From Candidatus Heimdallarchaeota archaeon (lineage in GTDB: Archaea > Asgardarchaeota > Heimdallarchaeia > Heimdallarchaeales > Heimdallarchaeaceae), in the NCBI GenBank assembly GCA_021399395.1, contig JAAFKJ010000089.1:1-20760 (forward strand): a DNA stretch of 20,760 nucleotides, in the 5' to 3' direction. The notes under the pieces are model-generated. The model saw only the letters and a list, made by a program, of their open reading frames with translations, did not search any database and was not told the DNA's origin. The translations under genes and the position numbers were made by a program. Positions 4,526 through 19,437 of this stretch are shown here, in pieces; within the stretch, counting starts at the first letter, position 1, and the number at the start of each line of letters is the position of its first letter.

Positions 4526-5812
4526 GTGAGCCCTATTTCTAATAAGAAATGTCACATATGTAACTCAACCTTTCCAGACAAAGTTATCTTTTGTTCTGTA
4601 TGTGGTACAGAATTGGTAGATGAAATAAAAAAACCTTCTAGCTCCGTTGATTCTCCGATAGATTTACCATCTAGTCATCCAAATTCAAAATCATTCTTTA
4701 GAGATGAACCCTTGGATACTAAACCTGTTGATGGGGATTTTATTGCAGATAAAACTCAGTATGCTTGGCAGATTTCTGAAAACTTGGTTCCATTTCAAAT
4801 GAAAAATCAAATCAGCTATAGTGATGGATTTAAATCTCCTAGAATTGATATTCAAAAATTTAAACAGTTATCAACTCTTGAAGGATTATATCTTGGAAGT
4901 ATTAATGCACTAATCTCTATTTCCCTGATACTTTTCTCAAGTATTATCTTACTAAATATTTTAAATCTAATACCCTCAGGCTGGTTATCAATCTTTCTAG
5001 CTACTTGTATAGCTGTATTATACTTCGGGCTCTCGTATTTTAGCAGTTTCAAAACTGCCCAAATTATCTCTAGTTGGGACGATCAACCTCTAAGAATAAG
5101 TAAATCAAATTTCTTGTCATTCAGTTTTATTCAAGTGATTCATGTCGGATTAATAAGTGCAATTTCGGTGATCTGTATGAAATTATTCTTTCCTTCTTCA
5201 GATTCTATTAGCTCACCTATATCAATATATGTTCCTTCAATCGTTATTATCCTACTAGTTGCTTTTCTCTCACCAACTTTTCGCATAGCGAAGATTTTGT
5301 CTCTCTTGCGAAATACAGGAACTGTTCAAGACTTTCTAGATGCAATTCAATTTCCGAAAATAGGTGCAAAAAGAACAGTAGAGATAATAGTACTATCCTA
5401 TCTAATTCCAGCATCTCTAATATTAGCAATCTTTTCACCAGCATCTCATATGGTATCTATTTTGCTTACTTCCACAATAGAAACGAAAGTGGCAGCTTGG
5501 GAATACATACTAATCTTGTTCGTTATTCTGCTTTTAGCAATATGTTTAACCTTTGTTAACTTCGTGGATGTTAATACATTTTATTTCTATGAGCAATCTA
5601 TCAAAAGTTATATTGAACCCCCAAGTCTAAATTGGGTTAAAAAAGTAGGTCAATACTCTAATCAAGACAATGAAGCTGGATTAAGCAATTATTCTAATTC
5701 ATCAAGTAACAATGAGTTTGAATCCAGAGATGAAAGATGCCCTGCTTGTTCAGCAATATTAGTTGGTGGCGCTGAATTCTGCATAGATTGCGGGAAAAAA
5801 GTTGTAAGATAG
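4526..5812 (+). CDS. Multi-pass membrane protein (about 6 TM) with double-zinc-ribbon motifs at both termini
   Basis: N-terminal CHIC-x10-CSVC, C-terminal CPAC-x10-CIDC, six hydrophobic segments between. GTG start with a TATA-like TTATATAA about 25 bp upstream. Confidence 0.85.
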   Translation: MSPISNKKCHICNSTFPDKVIFCSVCGTELVDEIKKPSSSVDSPIDLPSSHPNSKSFFRDEPLDTKPVDGDFIADKTQYAWQISENLVPFQMKNQISYSDGFKSPRIDIQKFKQLSTLEGLYLGSINALISISLILFSSIILLNILNLIPSGWLSIFLATCIAVLYFGLSYFSSFKTAQIISSWDDQPLRISKSNFLSFSFIQVIHVGLISAISVICMKLFFPSSDSISSPISIYVPSIVIILLVAFLSPTFRIAKILSLLRNTGTVQDFLDAIQFPKIGAKRTVEIIVLSYLIPASLILAIFSPASHMVSILLTSTIETKVAAWEYILILFVILLLAICLTFVNFVDVNTFYFYEQSIKSYIEPPSLNWVKKVGQYSNQDNEAGLSNYSNSSSNNEFESRDERCPACSAILVGGAEFCIDCGKKVVR

Positions 5813-5826
5813 AGTTAGTTAATACT

Positions 5827-6588
5827 CTATTCTTCTTGCATTTTTTGAACTATCTTTTTGATAATTGTTTGAATAGTGTTTAATCTTTCTTCAATTGTAT
5901 CAATTCTATGATTAACTGCCTCGATATCTTCTCTAGTAACATCTGAAGTACTAGCGACACTTTCCACTCTTGTCTCTTTAATAACAATTTCCTGCTTATG
6001 TTCTCGGATATCAATAATACCTCCAGTATTAGCTGGAGGGACAATGCTTTGAATGTTATTTGCTTCCAATAGTTTGTAAGCTAAGAAATCGAATGTCTCT
6101 TGGATGTTATGACCTGATAATGCACTGGTTTCACTGTAGTAGAAATGAATGCCAGTTTCTGCTTCTAAACGGTTACAGAATTCAAGAGCCATATCTATTG
6201 AAACTCTTCTTTTCTCCTCTAGATCAACTTTATTTGCAATAACAAAATAAATAAGAATCCCATTATTTGATCCTTTTGAAGCCTCTTCTAACCAGCTTGA
6301 TAAGTTAGTCATAGTCTTAGGATCTTGACAATCAAAAACCAAAATAGCTGCAGCAGCTCCTTTGTAAAAAGTGCTTCGAACAGCTTGATAACTCTCTTGA
6401 CCTGCTAAATCCCAGATTTGAAAAGCAATGGAATCTTCATCAGTTTGAATTTTCTTTGATGCAAAGTCCGCGCCTATGGTCTTTAGATAACTAGCTTCAA
6501 AACCTCTTCCCATATACTTCTCTCGAATTGAGGTTTTACCGACTGCTCCATCTCCAGCTAAAACCACTTTGAAATTCCATTTTCTCAT
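5827..6588 (-). CDS. Ras-superfamily (Rab-like) small GTPase with C-terminal coiled-coil extension
   Basis: G1 GDGAVGKT, G2 YLKTIGADF, G3 WDLAGQ, G4 NKVD, G5 ETSAL. GGTGA RBS. C-terminal heptads DIEAVNHRIDTIEERLNTIQTIIKKI. No C-terminal Cys prenylation motif. Confidence 0.95.
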   Translation of the reverse strand: MRKWNFKVVLAGDGAVGKTSIREKYMGRGFEASYLKTIGADFASKKIQTDEDSIAFQIWDLAGQESYQAVRSTFYKGAAAAILVFDCQDPKTMTNLSSWLEEASKGSNNGILIYFVIANKVDLEEKRRVSIDMALEFCNRLEAETGIHFYYSETSALSGHNIQETFDFLAYKLLEANNIQSIVPPANTGGIIDIREHKQEIVIKETRVESVASTSDVTREDIEAVNHRIDTIEERLNTIQTIIKKIVQKMQEE

Positions 6589-6601
6589 GTTATCACCGTT
6601 T

Positions 6602-7285
6602 TCATTTGAATTGTGCGAGCTCTTCTTCTAGTTCTTCTATTCTAGCGTGAGATTCCAGCAATTTTTTCTGAAAAGTAATTCCTACTTCTGCTTGAGTTTT
6701 CTCAAAATGTTCTTTTGCATCCTCAAGTTCTTTTTTCATTTTATCTTTGTCCTCTCTTGCTCTTTTCATTTCATCGCTTTCACGAACTTCTTGAACTGAC
6801 TTCTTTAATAGGTCTTCAATATTACTTTCTGAAATGTCTGCTTTAGAGGAAAGTGCTAATTTCATAGCTCTGATTTCTTCATCTGATATCTGTGGTCTAG
6901 ATGATAGTAAATCATTTACTTTTTCATCTAATGCTTTTTTCTCAACAAAAACATCGGCTAATTGTGATTTAAGCTTTCGATTGTCTTCAGATAACTCTGA
7001 AGAGTTTGTCAATTCTAAATCTAAAGAGCGCCTTAAATGTTCTAAATCTTCAGATCCTTCACCATATTGGTTCATATAGCGTATAATCATAGTCATATAT
7101 TCTCTGACCATAGGATGTAGTAATTCCCAATACTGAACTAATTCTCTCTCTACATCTTTCAATCTTGCATCTTTCTGACCTGGGGGAAGTTTTGTAAAAA
7201 CAGGACTTTCAATGTTTATAGATGAATAGTAGTCTGGAATATAATCGTAGATAGTTTCGCCTTTATACTTCTTTGGTTTAGACAT
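6602..7285 (-). CDS. Hypothetical coiled-coil protein, probably co-transcribed with the small GTPase
   Basis: Likely start ATG 7285 (MSKPKKYKG). Small N-terminal helical region then two long heptad stretches. Only 13 bp separate it from the GTPase start. Confidence 0.8.
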   Translation of the reverse strand: MSKPKKYKGETIYDYIPDYYSSINIESPVFTKLPPGQKDARLKDVERELVQYWELLHPMVREYMTMIIRYMNQYGEGSEDLEHLRRSLDLELTNSSELSEDNRKLKSQLADVFVEKKALDEKVNDLLSSRPQISDEEIRAMKLALSSKADISESNIEDLLKKSVQEVRESDEMKRAREDKDKMKKELEDAKEHFEKTQAEVGITFQKKLLESHARIEELEEELAQFK

Positions 7286-7373
7286 AGAATAACCCAAAAC
7301 ACTCTTTTCATTAACAAAAATAAACATTACGAAAGAATCGAAGATTAAAAGTCACGGAATTTGGACTGAAAGA

Positions 7374-7649
7374 TTAATTGTTGGAACTATTTTTCTTCTT
7401 CACATTAATCCGATGAAAACTAAAAGCTGCTTTCAGATTCTTTCGATCAAGGAAGATTTCACCTATGTTAAGATAGTTATTGGTTATTTTTTCAATAGTC
7501 TTTTGATCCAATTTTACTTTGCCTAATTTTTCGTAAAGAACCTTTCTTGTAAATTTCTTTCTTTTTCGCTTCTGTCTTGTGTACCAACCTAGTTTTATTC
7601 TCATAATGAAACCATAAAAAAACGTTTTAATCGAATTAAATATACTCAT
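7374..7649 (-). CDS. Small basic hypothetical protein
   Basis: 91-aa ORF preceded by a strong AAGGTGA RBS. Hydrophobic/amphipathic N-terminus, basic patch RQKRKRKK, helical C-terminal motif shared with the neighbouring gene. Confidence 0.7.
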   Translation of the reverse strand: MSIFNSIKTFFYGFIMRIKLGWYTRQKRKRKKFTRKVLYEKLGKVKLDQKTIEKITNNYLNIGEIFLDRKNLKAAFSFHRINVKKKNSSNN

Positions 7650-7712
7650 TATTTCACCTTAAATGCTGTTGATACTAGATTATTGAAGCCGTTGTAAGCA
7701 AGATCGATGTGG

Positions 7713-8027
7713 CTATTCTTTCTTCTTGAGAACTGCAGCAAAACGATCAACATTTGCTGAATACTCAATCATGATTTTTTCTGCCGTTTGCTTAGTAATA
7801 CCTTCTTCTCGAAGTTTGTTATAAATTCTAATTAGGGCATCAGCAAACGTTTCAGCAACATCTACATTATAAATTGCACCAAGAAACTGTTCAACTAGAG
7901 GGCCAATCTCTCCTGATAAAACCTTGACAATATCTTTAGTTTGAGAAAAATCTTTGATTGGTTCTTTCTGTTTGTCAGCTTTTATGTCATTGATACTCTG
8001 TTTCTTCTTCTTACCTTTCTTAGCCAC
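7713..8027 (-). CDS. Small helical hypothetical protein
   Basis: GTG start at 8027 preceded by AGGTGA RBS. Motif IYNKLREEGITKQTAEKIMIEY. Confidence 0.75.
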   Translation of the reverse strand: MAKKGKKKKQSINDIKADKQKEPIKDFSQTKDIVKVLSGEIGPLVEQFLGAIYNVDVAETFADALIRIYNKLREEGITKQTAEKIMIEYSANVDRFAAVLKKKE

Positions 8028-8152
8028 AAAATCACCTTTTCTCAAGTTCACAATGTCGTGAAGTATAAAACATTTGCCCTTCGGGCTACCTTAGGACATT
8101 TTAGACGTTATATTGAGAAAATTGAAAAACTGATTTTGATTTGTAGAATCGA

Positions 8153-8839
8153 CTACTTTTGTGCTTGAACATCTTCAGCTGTTTCTGCTTTTGTTAGCTG
8201 AATTGAGACATGGACAAACCTTTGGATGACTGTTATCACACAGAGCGCGGTAAGAATCATATATCCTATTGAAAAGTATGATAGTCCCAAAGTTTCCATC
8301 ATACCTCCTGGTGGAGGTGTAATAAATCCTTGATTAGGAACTAGAACTCCAATGAACATTAACAACATTAATACCATGAATCTCTCTCCTCGTTCCATTA
8401 TCCCCACAGCCATCTTTTCAATTCCAATGCTTTCTCCCTTTGCTCTGATATAACTAATTAGAAGAGTAGAAGCTACCATGACTATGCCAACACCAATAGT
8501 AATATTATCATTTGGTTCAATATAGAATGATCGAATAACTACTCCGCTAAATACAGCAACATCACTAAGACGATCTGCAATACTGTCAATAAATGAACCT
8601 TTTTTGGAATCAAGTTTATTGTATCTTGCTACACCGCCATCGATAAAGTCCATCGCACCGGCAAACCAGATAATTATGAAAGCTACCAAGAAATTGTTAA
8701 TAGCGATAAATACAGCAGAAGTTATTGAAAGAAGCAACCCTATTACTGTGAAAACTGTTGGATGTATACCAAGTTTTGCAAAGAAAATAATTAACGGTTG
8801 TACTATCTTTGAGAGTGGTTCTCGTATCTGTGAAATCAT
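8153..8839 (-). CDS. CDP-alcohol phosphatidyltransferase, probably archaetidylinositol phosphate synthase (PgsA-like)
   Basis: Family motif DFIDGGVARYNKLDSKKGSFIDSIADRLSD, plus HPTVFT, ISYIRAKGE and GIMERGER typical of the AIP/PIP synthase subgroup. Start ATG 8839 with AGGTG RBS. Confidence 0.9.
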   Translation of the reverse strand: MISQIREPLSKIVQPLIIFFAKLGIHPTVFTVIGLLLSITSAVFIAINNFLVAFIIIWFAGAMDFIDGGVARYNKLDSKKGSFIDSIADRLSDVAVFSGVVIRSFYIEPNDNITIGVGIVMVASTLLISYIRAKGESIGIEKMAVGIMERGERFMVLMLLMFIGVLVPNQGFITPPPGGMMETLGLSYFSIGYMILTALCVITVIQRFVHVSIQLTKAETAEDVQAQK

Positions 8840-13397: not shown

Positions 13398-14021
13398 ATG
13401 GAAATTGAGGATGAGACAGGAATATATTTGGTAAAGCTAGCCCGTTATGCAGCTGAAATTTGGGTTAGAGGTGAAAAATCTCCTCAGCCTATGGATCCAA
13501 TACTAGAACAAGCTAAAACTGTTACCGGTGCATTTGTAACCGTCAAAACCGTAGGGGAGGCCGAACACAATCTTCGTGGCTGTATTGGTTATCCTATTGG
13601 AATTGATTCTCTCTATAAGGAAGTAATAGATTTAGCAAAAGCTTCTACTCTAAATGATCCTCGATTTCCTCCTGTAGAAGAGAAAGAGTTGTCTAATTTA
13701 GTTTTTGAAGTAACAATTATGACTCCTCCTCAAAAAATCGATTATTCATCTCCACAGAACTTGCTTGAACAAATAACTGTCCCAGGAGATGGTTTGATTG
13801 TTAAGCTTGGACGTTTTCAGGGATTACTCTTACCTCAAGTTCCAATTGAACAAGGGTGGAACTCGGAAGAATTCCTTTCCTATACTTGCAGAAAAGCATA
13901 CCTGCCAACAGATGCATGGAAAAAGGAGAATATTGAAGTTGAGAAATTCCAAGGAATTGTGTTCTCAGAAACAGAACCACACGGGAAAATAATTCGTCAA
14001 GAACTAGATAACAGCTGCTAA
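13398..14021 (+). CDS. AMMECR1-domain protein (TIGR00296 / AmmeMemoRadiSam protein A family)
   Basis: GAFVT, LRGCIG signature, DPRFPPV, GLLLPQV, FLSYTCRKA. Confidence 0.95.
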   Translation: MEIEDETGIYLVKLARYAAEIWVRGEKSPQPMDPILEQAKTVTGAFVTVKTVGEAEHNLRGCIGYPIGIDSLYKEVIDLAKASTLNDPRFPPVEEKELSNLVFEVTIMTPPQKIDYSSPQNLLEQITVPGDGLIVKLGRFQGLLLPQVPIEQGWNSEEFLSYTCRKAYLPTDAWKKENIEVEKFQGIVFSETEPHGKIIRQELDNSC

Positions 14022-14939
14022 AATGTTGGCTATTTCCCCATCATCAATATCAGTAACGAGATGTGGGATAAAAATAGGTAAAGTTACTGGAAAGACCTTC
14101 TCATATTTTTCAAATATCTTCTTTGATACTGTTAATCCCAGGCACTCGGTATTTGAATAAAACTCTAATAAGTCATTGACATCAAAGTCTTCTTCGATAA
14201 AGTTAATTTTCCTTTCTTTCTCTTTTAACTGAGGTTGCAGCTTTAGTATTAGATCTATTGTTTCCTTGTATTTTTCATCTATTTCTGACAATTTTTGTAG
14301 GGAGTAAATTAGAGTCACTGCACCTCTTTTATAGAGTTGAATAATGTTTGAAATATCTTCTTGTTCCCCAGAGACTAATACGAGAACCTTCCCTTGACAA
14401 CCTACTGGTAATCCTCCTAGTCCTCTCTGGGTTTCATCAAAAACATATGCTTTATCATCTCTAACTTCTATATTCAGTAAATAATCAGGATTTGTAAGAT
14501 TAACTCGCAATTCTTTGTCTACGTTATTTTCCAAAATGAATTCTCCTACTTTTGCTCCAAGTTCAACACTTGTATAGGGGTGCTTTCCTGTTCGTTTCGC
14601 TTTAACAGCAAATGTGGATTTCTTGATAAATTTTGAGAAGAATTGTTTTTCTACACATAAATTTATTTCATCAATATTGGAAGAACACTGAAAAACTTCA
14701 CTTGTACTTACAGCACCTGGAACGAGAGAAGCGATTATACTCTCAACTTTCTTATTTACGGTAGATTCTACAAACACTCTGCTATATTCCCTAATAATTT
14801 GAAAATCCTCAATTTTATGCGCTTTCAATAAGAAATCAATATGTGATATCAATCGACTTGTTAGCCATTTACGTGTTTTCGAACTTTTAATAGCTATCTC
14901 TGAGAATCTAACCATTACCATAGACAAAAATTCTGACAT
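14004..14939 (-). CDS. ThiI-like THUMP-domain protein with degenerate PP-loop domain
   Basis: VRFSEIAIKS N-terminus, THUMP TFAVKAKRTGKHPYTS..VNLTNPD..IEVR, linker GLGGLPVG. The PP-loop reads LVSGEQED instead of LSGGxDS. Confidence 0.85.
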   Translation of the reverse strand: MSEFLSMVMVRFSEIAIKSSKTRKWLTSRLISHIDFLLKAHKIEDFQIIREYSRVFVESTVNKKVESIIASLVPGAVSTSEVFQCSSNIDEINLCVEKQFFSKFIKKSTFAVKAKRTGKHPYTSVELGAKVGEFILENNVDKELRVNLTNPDYLLNIEVRDDKAYVFDETQRGLGGLPVGCQGKVLVLVSGEQEDISNIIQLYKRGAVTLIYSLQKLSEIDEKYKETIDLILKLQPQLKEKERKINFIEEDFDVNDLLEFYSNTECLGLTVSKKIFEKYEKVFPVTLPIFIPHLVTDIDDGEIANILAAVI

Positions 14940-15221: not shown

Positions 15222-15344
15222 TTTTAACACTCTGAATACTAATTTTTTGCCTATATGTCCTTCCAATCTTATGAACCTTTCCGTTTGATACAAAATTGCT
15301 CACATTTTTCGGAACGAATTTTCCAACTACAAGTGACAAAACAC

Positions 15345-15352
15345 TTTATATT
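15345..15352 (+). promoter_or_regulatory. Putative TATA box for a leaderless fni transcript
   Basis: TTTATATT with upstream A-rich BRE-like CAAAA, ending 21 bp before ATG 15374. No RBS visible. Confidence 0.5.
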
Positions 15353-15373
15353 TCTGACAGCATATTTACACTC

Positions 15374-16423
15374 ATGAAAGAGACAGATTCATCAGTAACC
15401 TCTTTTAGAAAAGATGAGCATATCCTTCTCTGTTTAGAAAATGATGTTCAATACAGCGGAATAACAAATGGTTTTGATGATATAGAAATTGAGCCTTCTT
15501 TACTAACACAATTTTCCTTAGAAGAAATCGATTTAGCAACTACATTCTTATCTAAGGAAGTAAAATATCCCATCATAGTTTCAGGTATGACTGGAGGAAG
15601 TAAAAATGGAAGGGTTTTCAATGAATCTGTTGCACGAATTTGTAGTGAATTCAAAATAGGTATGGGGGTTGGCTCTCAAAGGGCTGCTCTCGAAGACCCC
15701 AAGCTTGTTAATACTTACGAGGTTAGACACATAGCCCCCAATATACCACTCATAGCAAATCTAGGAATAGCACAATTTATTCAGGGGTATAATCATGTAC
15801 AAGCACAAAAAGCTATAACTATGATCGGAGCTGATGCATTAGCTATCCACATCAATCCTCTTCAAGAATTTGTTCAAGGGGAAGGCGACAAAGATCAAAC
15901 AAAAGCTCTGGAGAAAATTGTTGCTCTTAAACAAGAATTTGAGTATCCTATTATCATTAAAGGCGTAGGTACAGGTTTAACAAAAGTTGATGCAAAATCC
16001 TTGTCTCAACTAGAAGTTTATGCGTTAGATGTTGCAGGAGCTGGTGGTACCAATTGGTCCCGAATAGAGTTTTATCGTAATGAAGATGTTAAATATCTCT
16101 CAGATAAGTTTCTTAATTGGGGAATATCTACAAAAAACAGTTTGATGAATGTAGTTGATTTTTCAGAGGGTAAAGAAACAAAAATCATTGCCTCTGGAGG
16201 AGTGTGGAGTGGTTTTGATGCAGTAAAAGCTTTACTTCTAGGAGCAGATTATGTTGCTTTAGCTCTACCCATTCTGAGATCTATTGGAAAGGGAGGCATA
16301 GATGAATGTAGAAAATTCCTTTCCACATACATTCTTGAGATGAAAGCTGTTATGGCAATGCTTAACGTAAAGAACTTAGAGGAATTAAAAAAAGAAAGGC
16401 ATAAAATTCTAGACAATATTTAG
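15374..16423 (+). CDS. fni: Type 2 isopentenyl-diphosphate delta-isomerase (FMN-dependent)
   Basis: RKDEHI, GMTGGS, GMGVGSQRAA, IHINPLQEFVQGEGD, DVAGAGGTNW, IASGG motifs. Confidence 0.96.
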   Translation: MKETDSSVTSFRKDEHILLCLENDVQYSGITNGFDDIEIEPSLLTQFSLEEIDLATTFLSKEVKYPIIVSGMTGGSKNGRVFNESVARICSEFKIGMGVGSQRAALEDPKLVNTYEVRHIAPNIPLIANLGIAQFIQGYNHVQAQKAITMIGADALAIHINPLQEFVQGEGDKDQTKALEKIVALKQEFEYPIIIKGVGTGLTKVDAKSLSQLEVYALDVAGAGGTNWSRIEFYRNEDVKYLSDKFLNWGISTKNSLMNVVDFSEGKETKIIASGGVWSGFDAVKALLLGADYVALALPILRSIGKGGIDECRKFLSTYILEMKAVMAMLNVKNLEELKKERHKILDNI

Positions 16424-16425
16424 TG

Positions 16426-16490
16426 TAATCAGTCTAACTATGATTCGTCATTGAGTAAAGCTCTCGGCAATGCCTTGTTCATCCTTTAGT
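16426..16490 (-). ncRNA. Double-guide box C/D sRNA (predicted 2'-O-methylation guide for LSU rRNA H69/H71)
   Basis: Minus strand reads AGGAUGA (C, 16485-16479), ACAAGGCAUUG (guide), CCGA (D'), GAGCUUUACUC (mini hairpin), A, AUGACGA (C'), AUCAUAGUUAGA (guide), CUGA (D, 16432-16429). Both guides are complementary to conserved adjacent LSU rRNA segments. Confidence 0.85.
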
Positions 16491-16546
16491 CAAATAAAAC
16501 TTACCCCTAATTATCTTTTTTGATTATAAATAAAGGAAAATGGAGT

Positions 16547-17545
16547 TTATCCACTTACTGCTGATAAGAAATTTGGATTTAGTATGAATGTTGGGATAAC
16601 GATAGCCAGATTAACTGCTATAAGAATGAAATAAGCAACTTTATTCCAGCTTAATATTTTCTTACCATCCAATTGCCAGATAGGAATACAATTGAATAAA
16701 GCTATTAAGCCATTGAACTGAGCAACAAGGATGAAGATGTTGGGAACACCCCAGAGGCCATACATAGCTAGAGGCCCAACCAATCCAACTGCATAGCCAC
16801 TATAAGTTAGAAATCCTATAATCAAACTTATACTTCCTATAACAGCATTAATTGCGGGTCCCGCAAAAGCAACTAAACCAAGATCTCTCTTGTCCATTTG
16901 TCTGCTCATTGGAACAATTGCTACAAAACCTGGAACGATCAGACCAATTCCTAACACAAGTGTAAGTAATGTAAACAGCATTCCTCTAACCCAGAGAATA
17001 TACCTGGCAAACTGACCTTTTTTGATTGCTACAAACTTGTGAGCTAATTCGTGGGGTAAAAATGCTGTGCCAACCAATATAGCTGCTATTGCAAACCCCC
17101 ACCATTTATTAGTACCTTCCTCAGCTCTGATGAATTGGAAGAAGCCGAAAACAAGAACTATCATTGCAAAACCAGCAAGTATATCCAAAATTTCATTTCC
17201 TAAAGAAAACATCTCTCCTGAAGCAGTGAGTCTTTTTGCAATGAAATCCTTCTTACTTTTTTCATCTGGAAAGTGCATTGGTTGCTGAGCTTGAGCTTGT
17301 TGTTGAGCTGCTTGCTGTGCTACTTGAGCAACACCGTATGCTATCTTACGCATAACATCCTCTGCTCTAACTTGACCTTGGGGAGACCCTTGTTGTGTCC
17401 CTTGTGTAGATTGTTGTGGTTGTTTTAATGATGGACAACTATGTCTGTTGGCATCTCTGTGTTGCTGACAAAATGATCCTCTGCAGAATCTACAGTAGAA
17501 TAGAATATCGGCTTCAGTATTGCACTGGGGATGTTCACATTTCAT
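16547..17545 (-). CDS. Site-2 protease (M50 family) with N-terminal AN1-type zinc finger and Q-rich linker
   Basis: CEHPQC-x9-CRFC-x4-CQQH-x5-HSC (AN1), QQAAQQQAQAQQ linker, HELAH (HExxH), AGPAIN, FNCIPIWQLDG (NxxPxxxLDG). Confidence 0.92.
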   Translation of the reverse strand: MKCEHPQCNTEADILFYCRFCRGSFCQQHRDANRHSCPSLKQPQQSTQGTQQGSPQGQVRAEDVMRKIAYGVAQVAQQAAQQQAQAQQPMHFPDEKSKKDFIAKRLTASGEMFSLGNEILDILAGFAMIVLVFGFFQFIRAEEGTNKWWGFAIAAILVGTAFLPHELAHKFVAIKKGQFARYILWVRGMLFTLLTLVLGIGLIVPGFVAIVPMSRQMDKRDLGLVAFAGPAINAVIGSISLIIGFLTYSGYAVGLVGPLAMYGLWGVPNIFILVAQFNGLIALFNCIPIWQLDGKKILSWNKVAYFILIAVNLAIVIPTFILNPNFLSAVSG

Positions 17546-17680
17546 TAGAATAATCACATGATTGTGTGTTAAGGCTCAAAGAACATGGGCATTTTAGAAC
17601 GTATCTATTTGACAAACAATTACGGGTCTCAAACCATCTCCATCAAGTTGTCCATCCACTCCAATGTTTTCTATAGCTAT

Positions 17681-17696: not shown

Positions 17697-17745
17697 TGAA
17701 ACCAGAAAAAAAGTTCAATTAACAATCGCTACGTTGATGATTATT

Positions 17746-19437
17746 ATGAAGAAAGATATCGAAATAGCTCAAGAAAAAGCTAAAGATATGAAAAATATCA
17801 AGGAAATTGCTGCCAAGGTAGGTTTAGAAGAAGATGACCTAGAGCAATTCGGAAAGCATGTTGCTAAGATAAATTATCAAACCATGCTTAAGATACTAAA
17901 TTCTGACAAACCAAATGGAAAATTGATTGCTGTAACAGCAATGACAGCCTCAAGAGCTGGTGAAGGAAAGACAGTTACAACTATTGGTCTATCCCAAGCA
18001 ATGCAAAAGATAGGCAAGAGTGTAATGTTCGCACTTAGAGAACCAAGTATGGGTCCAACCTTTGGTATCAAAGGAGGAGCTACAGGTGGAGGATACTCTC
18101 AAGTGTTCCCAATGTGGGACATAAATCTGCACTTTACTGGAGATATACATGCTATTACTTCTGCACATAATTTACTTGCAGCTTTGGTGGATAACCATTT
18201 GACAAAAGGCAATAAATGTAACATTGATCCAACAAAAGTAACCTGGCCAAGAAGCATGGATATGAACGATAGGGCATTAAGAGATATAATCACTGGTCTT
18301 GGTGGAAGAAGAATGGGTGGAGATATAAGAAACACAGGTTTCGTAATTACCGCTGCTTCGGAAATTATGGCAATATTAGCCTTATCTGCTAATGTTGGTG
18401 ATCTAAAAGACAGACTAGGAAGTATTCTAGTTGGTTATACCTATGACGACAAACCAGTTTTTGCACGAGACATAAGCGCTGTAGGTGCAATGACATTAAT
18501 ACTAAAAGATGCTATAAAACCAAACCTAGTACAAAACTTTGAAGGCGTACCAGGGTTCATTCACGCAGGCCCCTTCGCAAATATAGCACACGGTAACTCC
18601 TCAGTTGTTGGTACCAAACTTGCCTTAAAGCTTGCTGACTATACCATCACTGAAGGTGGCTTTGCCGCTGATCTTGGTTTTGAAAAGTTTGTTGATATTG
18701 TCGCTCGACAGTATGATACCTTACCTAACGCTGTTGTTCTTGTAATCACAGCTCGTGCTCTCAAGATGCATGGTGGTATCAGTGATTTAGATCAAGCTAA
18801 AGAAAAGAACATCGAAGCTCTTGAGAAAGGATTCGAGAATGTCGAAAAACATCTTGACAACATGCTCAATGTTTTCAACATCCCTCCAGTTGTTGCTATC
18901 AACAGATTCCCATTTGATAATGATGAAGAAATGGCTTGGATTAAACAAAAATGTGAAGCAATAGGTGTAACCGCTGCTGAAAGTCAAGTCTTTATGAAAG
19001 GTGGAGAAGGTGGAATTGAACTAGCAGAAGCTGTTTTAGCTGCCATTGAAAAAGGTGCAGGAGATGTCAAATTCGCTTATGAATTCTCTGATCCTATCAA
19101 AACCAAAATCGAAAAAATCGCTACTAAGGTTTATGGTGCTGAAGACGTCGAATACTCACCACAAGCTCTTCAAGATATAGCTTCCATCGAAAAGCTCGGT
19201 TTTGCTGACTTTCCTCTTTGTATGGCTAAGACCCAATTGAGTCTTTCAGATAAAGTTGGTCTCATGGGTGCTCCTAAAGGTTGGACACTTAACGTCGATG
19301 AGGTCAGATTATACACCGGTGCTCGTTTTATTGTTCCAATCTGTGGTAGAATGTTCTTGATGCCTGGATTACCTCCAGTTCCATCCGCTAATAAAATGGA
19401 CTATACCGAAGATGGGGATATTATAGGGTTAAACTAG
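17746..19437 (+). CDS. fhs: Formate--tetrahydrofolate ligase
   Basis: DIEIAQ, GEGKTVTTIG, LREPSMGPTFGIKGGATGGGYSQV, INLHFTGDIHAI, GPFANIAHGNSS, CMAKTQLSLS, MPGLP. Confidence 0.97.
   Translation: MKKDIEIAQEKAKDMKNIKEIAAKVGLEEDDLEQFGKHVAKINYQTMLKILNSDKPNGKLIAVTAMTASRAGEGKTVTTIGLSQAMQKIGKSVMFALREPSMGPTFGIKGGATGGGYSQVFPMWDINLHFTGDIHAITSAHNLLAALVDNHLTKGNKCNIDPTKVTWPRSMDMNDRALRDIITGLGGRRMGGDIRNTGFVITAASEIMAILALSANVGDLKDRLGSILVGYTYDDKPVFARDISAVGAMTLILKDAIKPNLVQNFEGVPGFIHAGPFANIAHGNSSVVGTKLALKLADYTITEGGFAADLGFEKFVDIVARQYDTLPNAVVLVITARALKMHGGISDLDQAKEKNIEALEKGFENVEKHLDNMLNVFNIPPVVAINRFPFDNDEEMAWIKQKCEAIGVTAAESQVFMKGGEGGIELAEAVLAAIEKGAGDVKFAYEFSDPIKTKIEKIATKVYGAEDVEYSPQALQDIASIEKLGFADFPLCMAKTQLSLSDKVGLMGAPKGWTLNVDEVRLYTGARFIVPICGRMFLMPGLPPVPSANKMDYTEDGDIIGLN

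Follow-up and report, generated by a model that had tools for sequence, protein, structure and literature searches.

A double-guide box C/D sRNA conserved in a family of Heimdall-type Asgard archaea and predicted to target helices 69 and 71 of large-subunit rRNA

The stretch of DNA considered here (contig JAAFKJ010000089.1, 20,760 nt; the whole of this stretch is referred to as the window) harbours, on its minus strand and between an isopentenyl diphosphate (IPP) isomerase gene and an AN1 zinc-finger/M50 peptidase gene, an archaeal box C/D small RNA (sRNA) with two guides. As judged from sequence comparisons, it is a real sRNA, conserved family-wide in Heimdall-type Asgard archaea. We interpret it as an independently transcribed box C/D sRNA gene, with a D guide that would be directed at the equivalent of Escherichia coli A1913, and a D′ guide that would be directed at the equivalent of position 1940, in the ribosomal RNA (rRNA) of the large subunit (LSU); our probability for this interpretation is roughly 0.85. 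It rests on the architecture of the element, its conservation, covariation at the RNA level, complementarity to the rRNA of relatives, and the presence of three core protein genes.

In the mechanism that we propose, the RNA would fold to give a terminal C/D kink-turn and an internal C′/D′ kink-loop, both of which would be bound by L7Ae, followed by the joining of Nop5–fibrillarin dimers. The D guide would pair with the loop of helix 69 (H69; CUAACUAUGA), placing fibrillarin at the 2′-OH of the second A, the A1913 equivalent, within intersubunit bridge B2a. The D′ guide would pair with helix 71 (H71; AAUGCCUUGU), 27 nt downstream, leading to methylation of the G at the 1940 equivalent. With both guides engaging neighbouring segments, the RNA might additionally assist regional folding during ribosome assembly. 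We infer transcription start and end, assembly of the ribonucleoprotein (RNP) and methylation from the features described below.

Architecture of the sRNA

Read on the minus strand from 16490 to 16426, the element is ACUAA-AGGAUGA-ACAAGGCAUUG-CCGA-GAGCUUUACUCA-AUGACGA-AUCAUAGUUAGA-CUGA-UUA, giving the order box C, 11 nt guide, box D′, 12 nt hairpin spacer, box C′, 12 nt guide and box D (Table 1). A preliminary description, made from the letters of the window, had claimed a full archaeal double-guide architecture for this strand, which proves exact in every box and guide; the fni/protease gap in which it had located the element is likewise confirmed, by a TIGR02151 match and by AN1 and Peptidase_M50 domains on the flanks. 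The C box agrees with RUGAUGA at six of seven positions and retains both GA dinucleotides, whilst the D box is an exact CUGA. Both guides, at 11 nt (D′) and 12 nt (D), fall within the 10–12 nt range of archaeal C/D guide spacers (PMC7994747).

Table 1. Features of the sRNA locus and its immediate surroundings (window coordinates)
Feature	Position	Strand	Remarks
Box C/D sRNA gene, ~60–65 nt	16426–16490	−	Four-box reading; model R1 match 16423–16490 at 82.2 bits
C box AGGAUGA	16479–16485	−	RUGAUGA variant, G at position 2
D′ guide ACAAGGCAUUG, 11 nt	16468–16478	−	N+5 nucleotide, C16472
D′ box CCGA	16464–16467	−	CUGA in most relatives; CAGA and CGGA too
D′–C′ spacer GAGCUUUACUCA, 12 nt	16452–16463	−	3 bp hairpin, GAG 16463–16461 / CUC 16455–16453
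C′ box AUGACGA	16445–16451	−	UGANGA kept in 28/29 copies
D guide AUCAUAGUUAGA, 12 nt	16433–16444	−	N+5 nucleotide, U16437
D box CUGA	16429–16432	−	Same in 29/29 copies
A-rich/TATA-like block ATCAAAAAAGATAATTA, probable BRE/TATA promoter of sRNA	16508–16524	−	Conserved, at fixed distance
Type 2 IPP isomerase (fni), convergent neighbour	15296–16423	+	Context only; TIGR02151, 364.8 bits (cut-off 281.3)
AN1 zinc-finger/Peptidase_M50 gene, upstream neighbour	16547–17557	−	Context only; domain matches

All four boxes are short and two are off consensus, as might be expected if motifs had merely grouped by chance, and without function, in an AT-rich intergenic spacer. The counts obtained from shuffled, genomic and reversed-genome sequence argue that the arrangement is instead real. 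In the window, a relaxed four-box pattern has a single match, compared with none in 100 dinucleotide shuffles; across the 2.8 Mb genome, a comparable regular expression likewise has a single match, and it has none in the reversed genome. When the guides were shuffled, at least 10 contiguous bp covering the N+5 nucleotide (the fifth upstream of the box) arose in 97 of 20,000 trials for D and in 67 of 20,000 for D′, whilst both together did so in 0 of 20,000. Family-wide conservation already contradicts a fortuitous origin, as do covariation within the hairpin and the fit of both guides to neighbouring rRNA sites, making coincidence exceedingly improbable.

A relaxed single-guide scan of the window's genome produced 20 candidates with at least 9 bp to rRNA, compared with three in the reversed genome; this locus apart, none of the other single-guide candidates displays the four-box architecture or a second matching guide. 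It may be that canonical C/D sRNAs are very scarce in this genome, or that the remaining ones depart from the usual architecture.

Conservation of the sRNA and pairing with rRNA

A blastn search with the 181 nt region located the element in 16 of 18 genomes of the same genus (17 copies), with no convincing match outside the genus. Alignment A1, in which the copy from the window was added to these 17 to give 18 sequences, was used to build covariance model R1, from which the terminal stem was excluded. This model recovers one copy in 27 of the 30 other genomes of family f1, to which the window belongs (genera g1, g9, g10, g11 and g12), and has no match among the 16 genomes searched from three other families of the order (f2, f3 and f4); completeness is 78–89 % for the three f1 genomes that it missed. 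Two identical copies are present in G011, on contigs C23 (L026/L029) and C27 (L015/L056), one of these contigs ending inside the neighbouring isomerase gene; the pair probably reflects the splitting or duplication of a single locus during assembly, and not a true duplication.

Four elements are identical throughout the alignment of 29 copies: GAUGA in box C, GA in box D′, CUGA in box D and the D-guide core UCAUAGUUA. The sole departure from UGA-GA in box C′ occurs in G034, where the box ends UGAUGU. Variation in box D′ affects position 2, most relatives having CUGA here together with UGACGA or UGAUGA in box C′. The C box is GGAUGA throughout g1 and g9, and is canonical (AUGAUGA or GUGAUGA) in g10, g11 and g12; since the latter genera possess the RUGAUGA form, GGAUGA is, on this comparison, a derived variant. 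In the D′–C′ hairpin, 97.8 % of alignment cells are paired (23 distinct rows), and three of the four pairs display changes on both sides (GAGC/GCUC, GAGU/ACUC and GUCU/AGAC). The covariation score of the hairpin was attained in 0 of 500 shuffles, and no slid register came close. All the while, the proteins encoded on either side diverge to as little as ~48–55 % identity in other genera (tblastn), with the boxes and the core of the D guide remaining fixed.

With regard to the targets, a search with RF02540 yielded no LSU rRNA from the assembly that contains the window, which comprises 201 contigs and is 81.8 % complete. Twelve 23S rRNAs from family f1 were considered, seven being from the same genus (G004, G002, G005, G009, G014, G017 and G010) and five from four further genera (G031, G033, G034, G035 and G036). 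H69 reads GGAGCUAACUAUGAGCUUC in all twelve, whilst H71 reads AAAUGCCUUGU in eleven, with one change in G034; because the family is so uniform, the rRNA of the window's organism very likely carries the same H69 and H71 sequences. In same-genus 23S rRNA, the D guide forms 10 contiguous Watson–Crick bp with CUAACUAUGA in the H69 loop, as does the D′ guide with AAUGCCUUGU in H71, each duplex having one or two unpaired nucleotides at its ends. At N+5, the D guide is base-paired to the second A of UAAC, and the D′ guide to the G of AAUGCC. Alignment to E. coli K-12 rrlH places these targets at A1913 and at position 1940 (a U in E. coli and a G in f1 relatives), 27 nt apart. When sRNAs were compared with the 23S rRNA of their own genomes (10 genomes, G017 and G010 being left out), the D guide formed 9–11 contiguous bp in all 10, always placing N+5 on the same A, and the D′ guide gave 9–10 bp in seven. 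The two target assignments of the preliminary description (the second A, E. coli A1913, for the D guide, and the G at 1940 some 27 nt downstream in H71 for the D′ guide) are therefore upheld by the 23S rRNA of relatives. Its proposal that boxes and guides be sought at related Asgard fni loci is answered by the 27 f1 genomes, with the D′ guide lost in seven of 29 copies.

The rRNA genes of the family have some features of their own. On contig C52 of G004 (L062 and L002), the 16S gene (99–1611, −) and the 23S gene (4985–8366, +) are divergent and do not form a standard operon. Family 23S genes measure 3.4–4.2 kb, compared with a model of 2987 positions, indicating insertions or expansion segments.

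The proteins that such an RNA would need are encoded in the genome: fibrillarin (PF01269, 308.9 bits) adjoins Nop5 (PF01798, 229.4 bits) on contig C150, whilst the L7Ae family is represented by two genes (PF01248; contigs C66 and C170). The genome further contains three Pfam Actin matches (448, 437 and 197 bits), an ESCRT-II EAP30 protein (77.7 bits) and 35 Ras-family matches, a combination of actin, EAP30 and many Ras-family proteins being a hallmark of Asgard archaea. Together with the titles of records bearing the same sRNA, these genes point to a Heimdall-type Asgard archaeon as the host. Other comparisons were uninformative in this respect: a Pfam profilin search was empty for this genome and for every control alike, the fni protein retrieved no related locus, and the formate-tetrahydrofolate ligase was matched to bacterial protein clusters only. 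One of the 35 Ras-family matches, a small GTPase (140.6 bits), is located in the window itself (6070–6570, −).

Several observations weigh against a canonical double-guide methylation sRNA. The C box has G where the consensus has U at position 2, a substitution that we take L7Ae to tolerate from what is known of kink-turn structure. The terminal stem is weak, with 2–4 bp possible and 57.7 % of cells paired in the register examined. The predicted fold is not more stable than that of shuffled sequences (z = +0.66), which is usual for C/D sRNAs, yet lends no support. A scan of the sRNA against Rfam at gathering thresholds gave no family match, and the organism's own 23S rRNA is unassembled, such that pairing is read from relatives.

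The remaining points concern the D′ side. Although the D′ guide of the window's genome is intact, its D′ box is CCGA, as in no other copy. In seven of the 29 copies (G002, G018, G012, G005, G008, G039 and G034) the D′ spacer is 10 nt long and diverged; for the first six of these, no match of at least 7 nt covering N+5 was found in the 23S and 16S rRNAs tested, and for G034 there is just one 7 nt match, in 16S. H71 is nevertheless unchanged in G002 and G005, two of the three 23S rRNAs read for such genomes. On this evidence, the function under constraint is that of the H69 guide, and some lineages can do without the H71 guide. The guide aimed at the 1940 equivalent in H71 is, so far as the comparison of copies goes, secondary and evolutionarily labile. 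Methylation at the A1913 equivalent is predicted as likely. At the 1940 equivalent, methylation in this organism has a somewhat better than even chance, the lower rating reflecting the loss of the D′ guide elsewhere and the CCGA box here.

These same features would suit a genuine C/D RNP that acts mainly by chaperoning rRNA folding or by tethering H69 to H71; in that case one of the two methylations (most likely that directed by D′), or both, would be absent or unimportant. Targets separated by 27 nt conform to a pattern for which a chaperone role is proposed in PMC4644070 and PMC6009581; the D′ box is non-canonical here, the D′ guide is missing from seven copies, and elsewhere among Asgard records the H69 site is retained with a different partner, at the C1934 or G1945 equivalent. 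However, N+5 is Watson–Crick paired in both duplexes, and the H69 register is the same in the 29 copies and in other lineages, a constancy that pairing alone would not need. Copies without a D′ guide, moreover, cannot tether, and keep their D guide nonetheless. A predominantly structural role thus appears improbable, and guided methylation of the two sites remains our preferred explanation.

Distribution beyond the family and relationship to SNORD46/snR63

An exact-pattern scan of named genome records, using the 22-mer that spans box C′, the guide and box D, produced 43 loci. Of these, 22 come from records bearing the names Candidatus Heimdallarchaeota or Heimdallarchaeum, two of the records being complete genomes; their flanking sequences can be aligned with the f1 sRNA family. 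Complete C/D sRNAs with the same D guide also occur in records titled Thorarchaeota, Promethearchaeota and Njordarchaeota. When set against the 23S rRNA of the same record, the D guide of a Thorarchaeota-titled example falls on the same A, and its D′ guide on UAGCCAAAUG, the C1934 equivalent; in a Crenarchaeota-titled record, the D guide again falls on the same A, with the D′ guide on CUUGCCGGGU, the G1945 equivalent; and in a Promethearchaeota-titled record, the D guide alone is convincing. As read from these sequences, the H69 guide stays constant, and its partner shifts position along H70–H71 or disappears.

Within the phylum, the exact 22-mer is present in 40 of 400 genomes, a reversed-pattern control having no match. 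By family, it is found in 26 of 30 f1 genomes as well as the window's own, in one of two from f6, five of five from f25, seven of 89 from f31–f33 and 0 of 135 from f20. Three records titled Nitrososphaerota or Crenarchaeota were considered as non-Asgard carriers and rejected, as the same guide variants occur in f25 (5/5), a family of the window's own phylum. Matches in records titled Bathyarchaeota, Nitrosomonas and Roizmanbacteria lack an upstream C or D′ box, and are probably due to chance. Asgard-lineage records that combine the H69 D guide with another D′ guide are L072 with L113, L088 with L112, and L094 with L114. A Thermococci-titled record (L086), read by eye, contains an apparent C/D sRNA in which the H69 guide occupies the D′ slot.

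Within the order, the sRNA was found in f1 alone, and the canonical H69 loop is present in all 12 f1 rRNAs. This co-distribution fits a guide–target relationship, as far as one to three events among kin, without statistics, can suggest. The H69 loop is otherwise near-universal, and the altered loops of the sister families are unusual: six of six f3 23S rRNAs carry UAACCAUGA, in which the residue equivalent to E. coli 1915 is C (L008 and L144–L148), the single f2 23S rRNA carries UAACCUUGA (L149), and all three from f4 have another short hairpin in the place of H69, e.g. GGUUUGAAUAUCAAACC (L001, L003 and L150). A guide for the variant loop UAACCAUGA was sought as a full 22-mer and found in none of 47 genomes; a shorter 15-mer containing R gave extra matches in f3, f4 and f1, and the eight that were read all lack C/D boxes, four more, in f3 (G046, G020 and a second site in G045) and f1 (G040), being left unread.

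The sRNA is biology of a known kind, namely an archaeal double-guide sRNA directed at the H69/H71 hotspot. PMC4644070 names helices 68, 69 and 71 as hotspots of archaeal 2′-O-methylation, and describes dense predicted sites in H69 around E. coli A1912 for hyperthermophiles; the same clustering appears in PMC6009581, where both guides of ~45 % of Pyrobaculum sRNAs lie within 100 nt. Because H69 and H71 are known hotspots in other archaea, the A1913-equivalent site is not special to Asgard archaea. With the sR families of Pyrococcus, Sulfolobus and Pyrobaculum (PMC4644070, PMC6009581 and PMC7994747), the present RNA shares its ~65 nt length, box order and N+5 rule, a pair of guides, 11 and 12 nt long, whose targets lie close together on a single rRNA within the H69–H71 hotspot, and the presence of L7Ae, Nop5 and fibrillarin genes. 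It differs from them in its Heimdall-type host, in the G at position 2 of the C box (in two genera), in a 12 nt D′–C′ spacer with a conserved, covarying hairpin, and in lying below every Rfam threshold. A ribose methylation of H69 is also listed for Haloarcula marismortui 23S rRNA, a mesophile with very few such modifications, in PMC2584109; that residue, Gm1950 (E. coli 1909), is another nucleotide, and is located in the stem and not the loop. Our literature search found no paper describing C/D sRNAs of Asgard archaea, which does not prove their absence from print; of the papers containing both Asgard and C/D terms, the two that were checked mention Asgard archaea merely in passing.

The closest eukaryotic parallel is with SNORD46 and snR63. 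Yeast Am2256, in the H69 loop, is guided by snR63 according to the listing in PMC2794176, which equates yeast Ψ2258 and Ψ2260 with E. coli 1915 and 1917; from these, yeast A2256 corresponds to E. coli 1913, and the earlier identification of the A1913 equivalent with this site stands on that listing. The guide end of SNORD46 given in the preliminary description is also corroborated: the Rfam consensus (RF00218) is GUCAUAGUUACA-CUGA, compared with AUCAUAGUUAGA-CUGA in the window and GUCAUAGUUAGU-CUGA in many relatives. Each of these guides lies beside box D, in the same register, and addresses the same second A of UAAC. Dissimilarities are equally apparent, as the eukaryotic model has 104 positions and belongs to a family of clan CL00061, and the archaeal RNA possesses a second guide, for H71. 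For the latter site, the accessible portion of a yeast modification table (PMC8307265) runs 2266, 2278, 2280, 2281 and 2288, with no entry at 2283, which is the D′-site equivalent by simple arithmetic with no alignment behind it.

When the 79 nt stretch alone was compared with Rfam by cmscan, one of only two matches up to E = 10 was to SNORD46, at model positions 74–98 (CAAGGACUUGUCAUAGUUACACUGA against CAAUGACGAAUCAUAGUUAGACUGA in the sRNA). Family membership is contradicted by the score of 11.3 bits against a gathering threshold of 40, the E-value of 4.6 and the local, 25 nt nature of the match; SNORD46 does not appear in the scan of 181 nt or in the scan at gathering thresholds. Guide likeness is moreover forced by the shared target, as the rRNA dictates the guide sequence, and the sole independent agreement with SNORD46/snR63 is the use of the box-D slot. 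Thus the suggestion that this is an Asgard counterpart of a eukaryotic snoRNA holds for site and register, homology being unsupported at 11.3 bits against 40: by its predicted target, the sRNA works like SNORD46/snR63 at the A1913 site, and fails family membership. Orthology with the eukaryotic snoRNAs is possible. In a bolder version, which we regard as doubtful, the H69-loop guide would be a pre-eukaryotic lineage, the sRNAs of Heimdall-, Thor-, Njord- and Prometheoarchaeota-titled records and SNORD46/snR63 all descending from a single double-guide sRNA in the archaeal ancestor; the H69 guide would have kept its place in the box-D slot, with the D′ partner having drifted along H70–H71 between the 1934, 1940 and 1945 equivalents or been lost.

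Genomic context, biogenesis and significance

The sRNA is situated in a gap of 123 nt between the IPP isomerase and AN1/M50 peptidase genes, an arrangement that is largely retained, with the peptidase gene present at 27 of 29 copy loci and the isomerase gene at 28 of 29 (tblastn). The gaps in synteny concern G013/G011b and G033, and the isomerase matches in G010 and G011a are fragments. Upstream of the sRNA, ATCAAAAAAGATAATTA is the sole conserved block among the 29 copies, the spacer being otherwise unconserved. Its ATAATTA core is centred ~26 nt 5′ of the C box, at a fixed distance, in agreement with the usual spacing between TATA element and start site in archaea. On the strength of that spacing, a dedicated promoter is proposed, with transcription starting at the C box or a few nucleotides before it.

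The sRNA might alternatively lack a promoter of its own and be cut from the 3′ untranslated region (UTR) of the peptidase mRNA, as it lies on the same strand as the peptidase gene, 57 nt downstream of its stop codon, and this arrangement is kept at 27 of the 29 copy loci. The conserved TATA-like block between stop codon and C box, at archaeal promoter distance and within an otherwise unconserved spacer, makes such an origin unlikely; furthermore, it would alter the biogenesis of the sRNA and leave its function as it is. We therefore retain independent transcription as part of the preferred interpretation.

Further from the locus, the window encodes a THUMP/ThiI-ferredoxin-like domain protein (14004–14939, −), two genes from the sRNA and possibly an RNA-modifying enzyme, and, beyond the peptidase gene, a formate-tetrahydrofolate ligase (17734–19437, +; 795.6 bits).

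Box C/D guide RNAs are common to archaea and eukaryotes, and individual guides are rarely traceable between them. The sRNA presented here comes from the archaeal group closest to eukaryotes, and its predicted target is the same bridge B2a nucleotide, addressed from the same slot and in the same register, as that of snR63/SNORD46. As it falls below all Rfam thresholds, annotation based on Rfam would miss it, and covariance model R1 is usable for annotating the sRNA family. The predicted sites also provide a concrete prediction for the mapping of rRNA modifications in Asgard archaea. Were the pre-eukaryotic lineage true, it would provide an unusual instance of orthologous guide RNAs in archaea and eukaryotes; the family also gives a point of departure for examining whether some snoRNA target sites were passed on by inheritance or reinvented.

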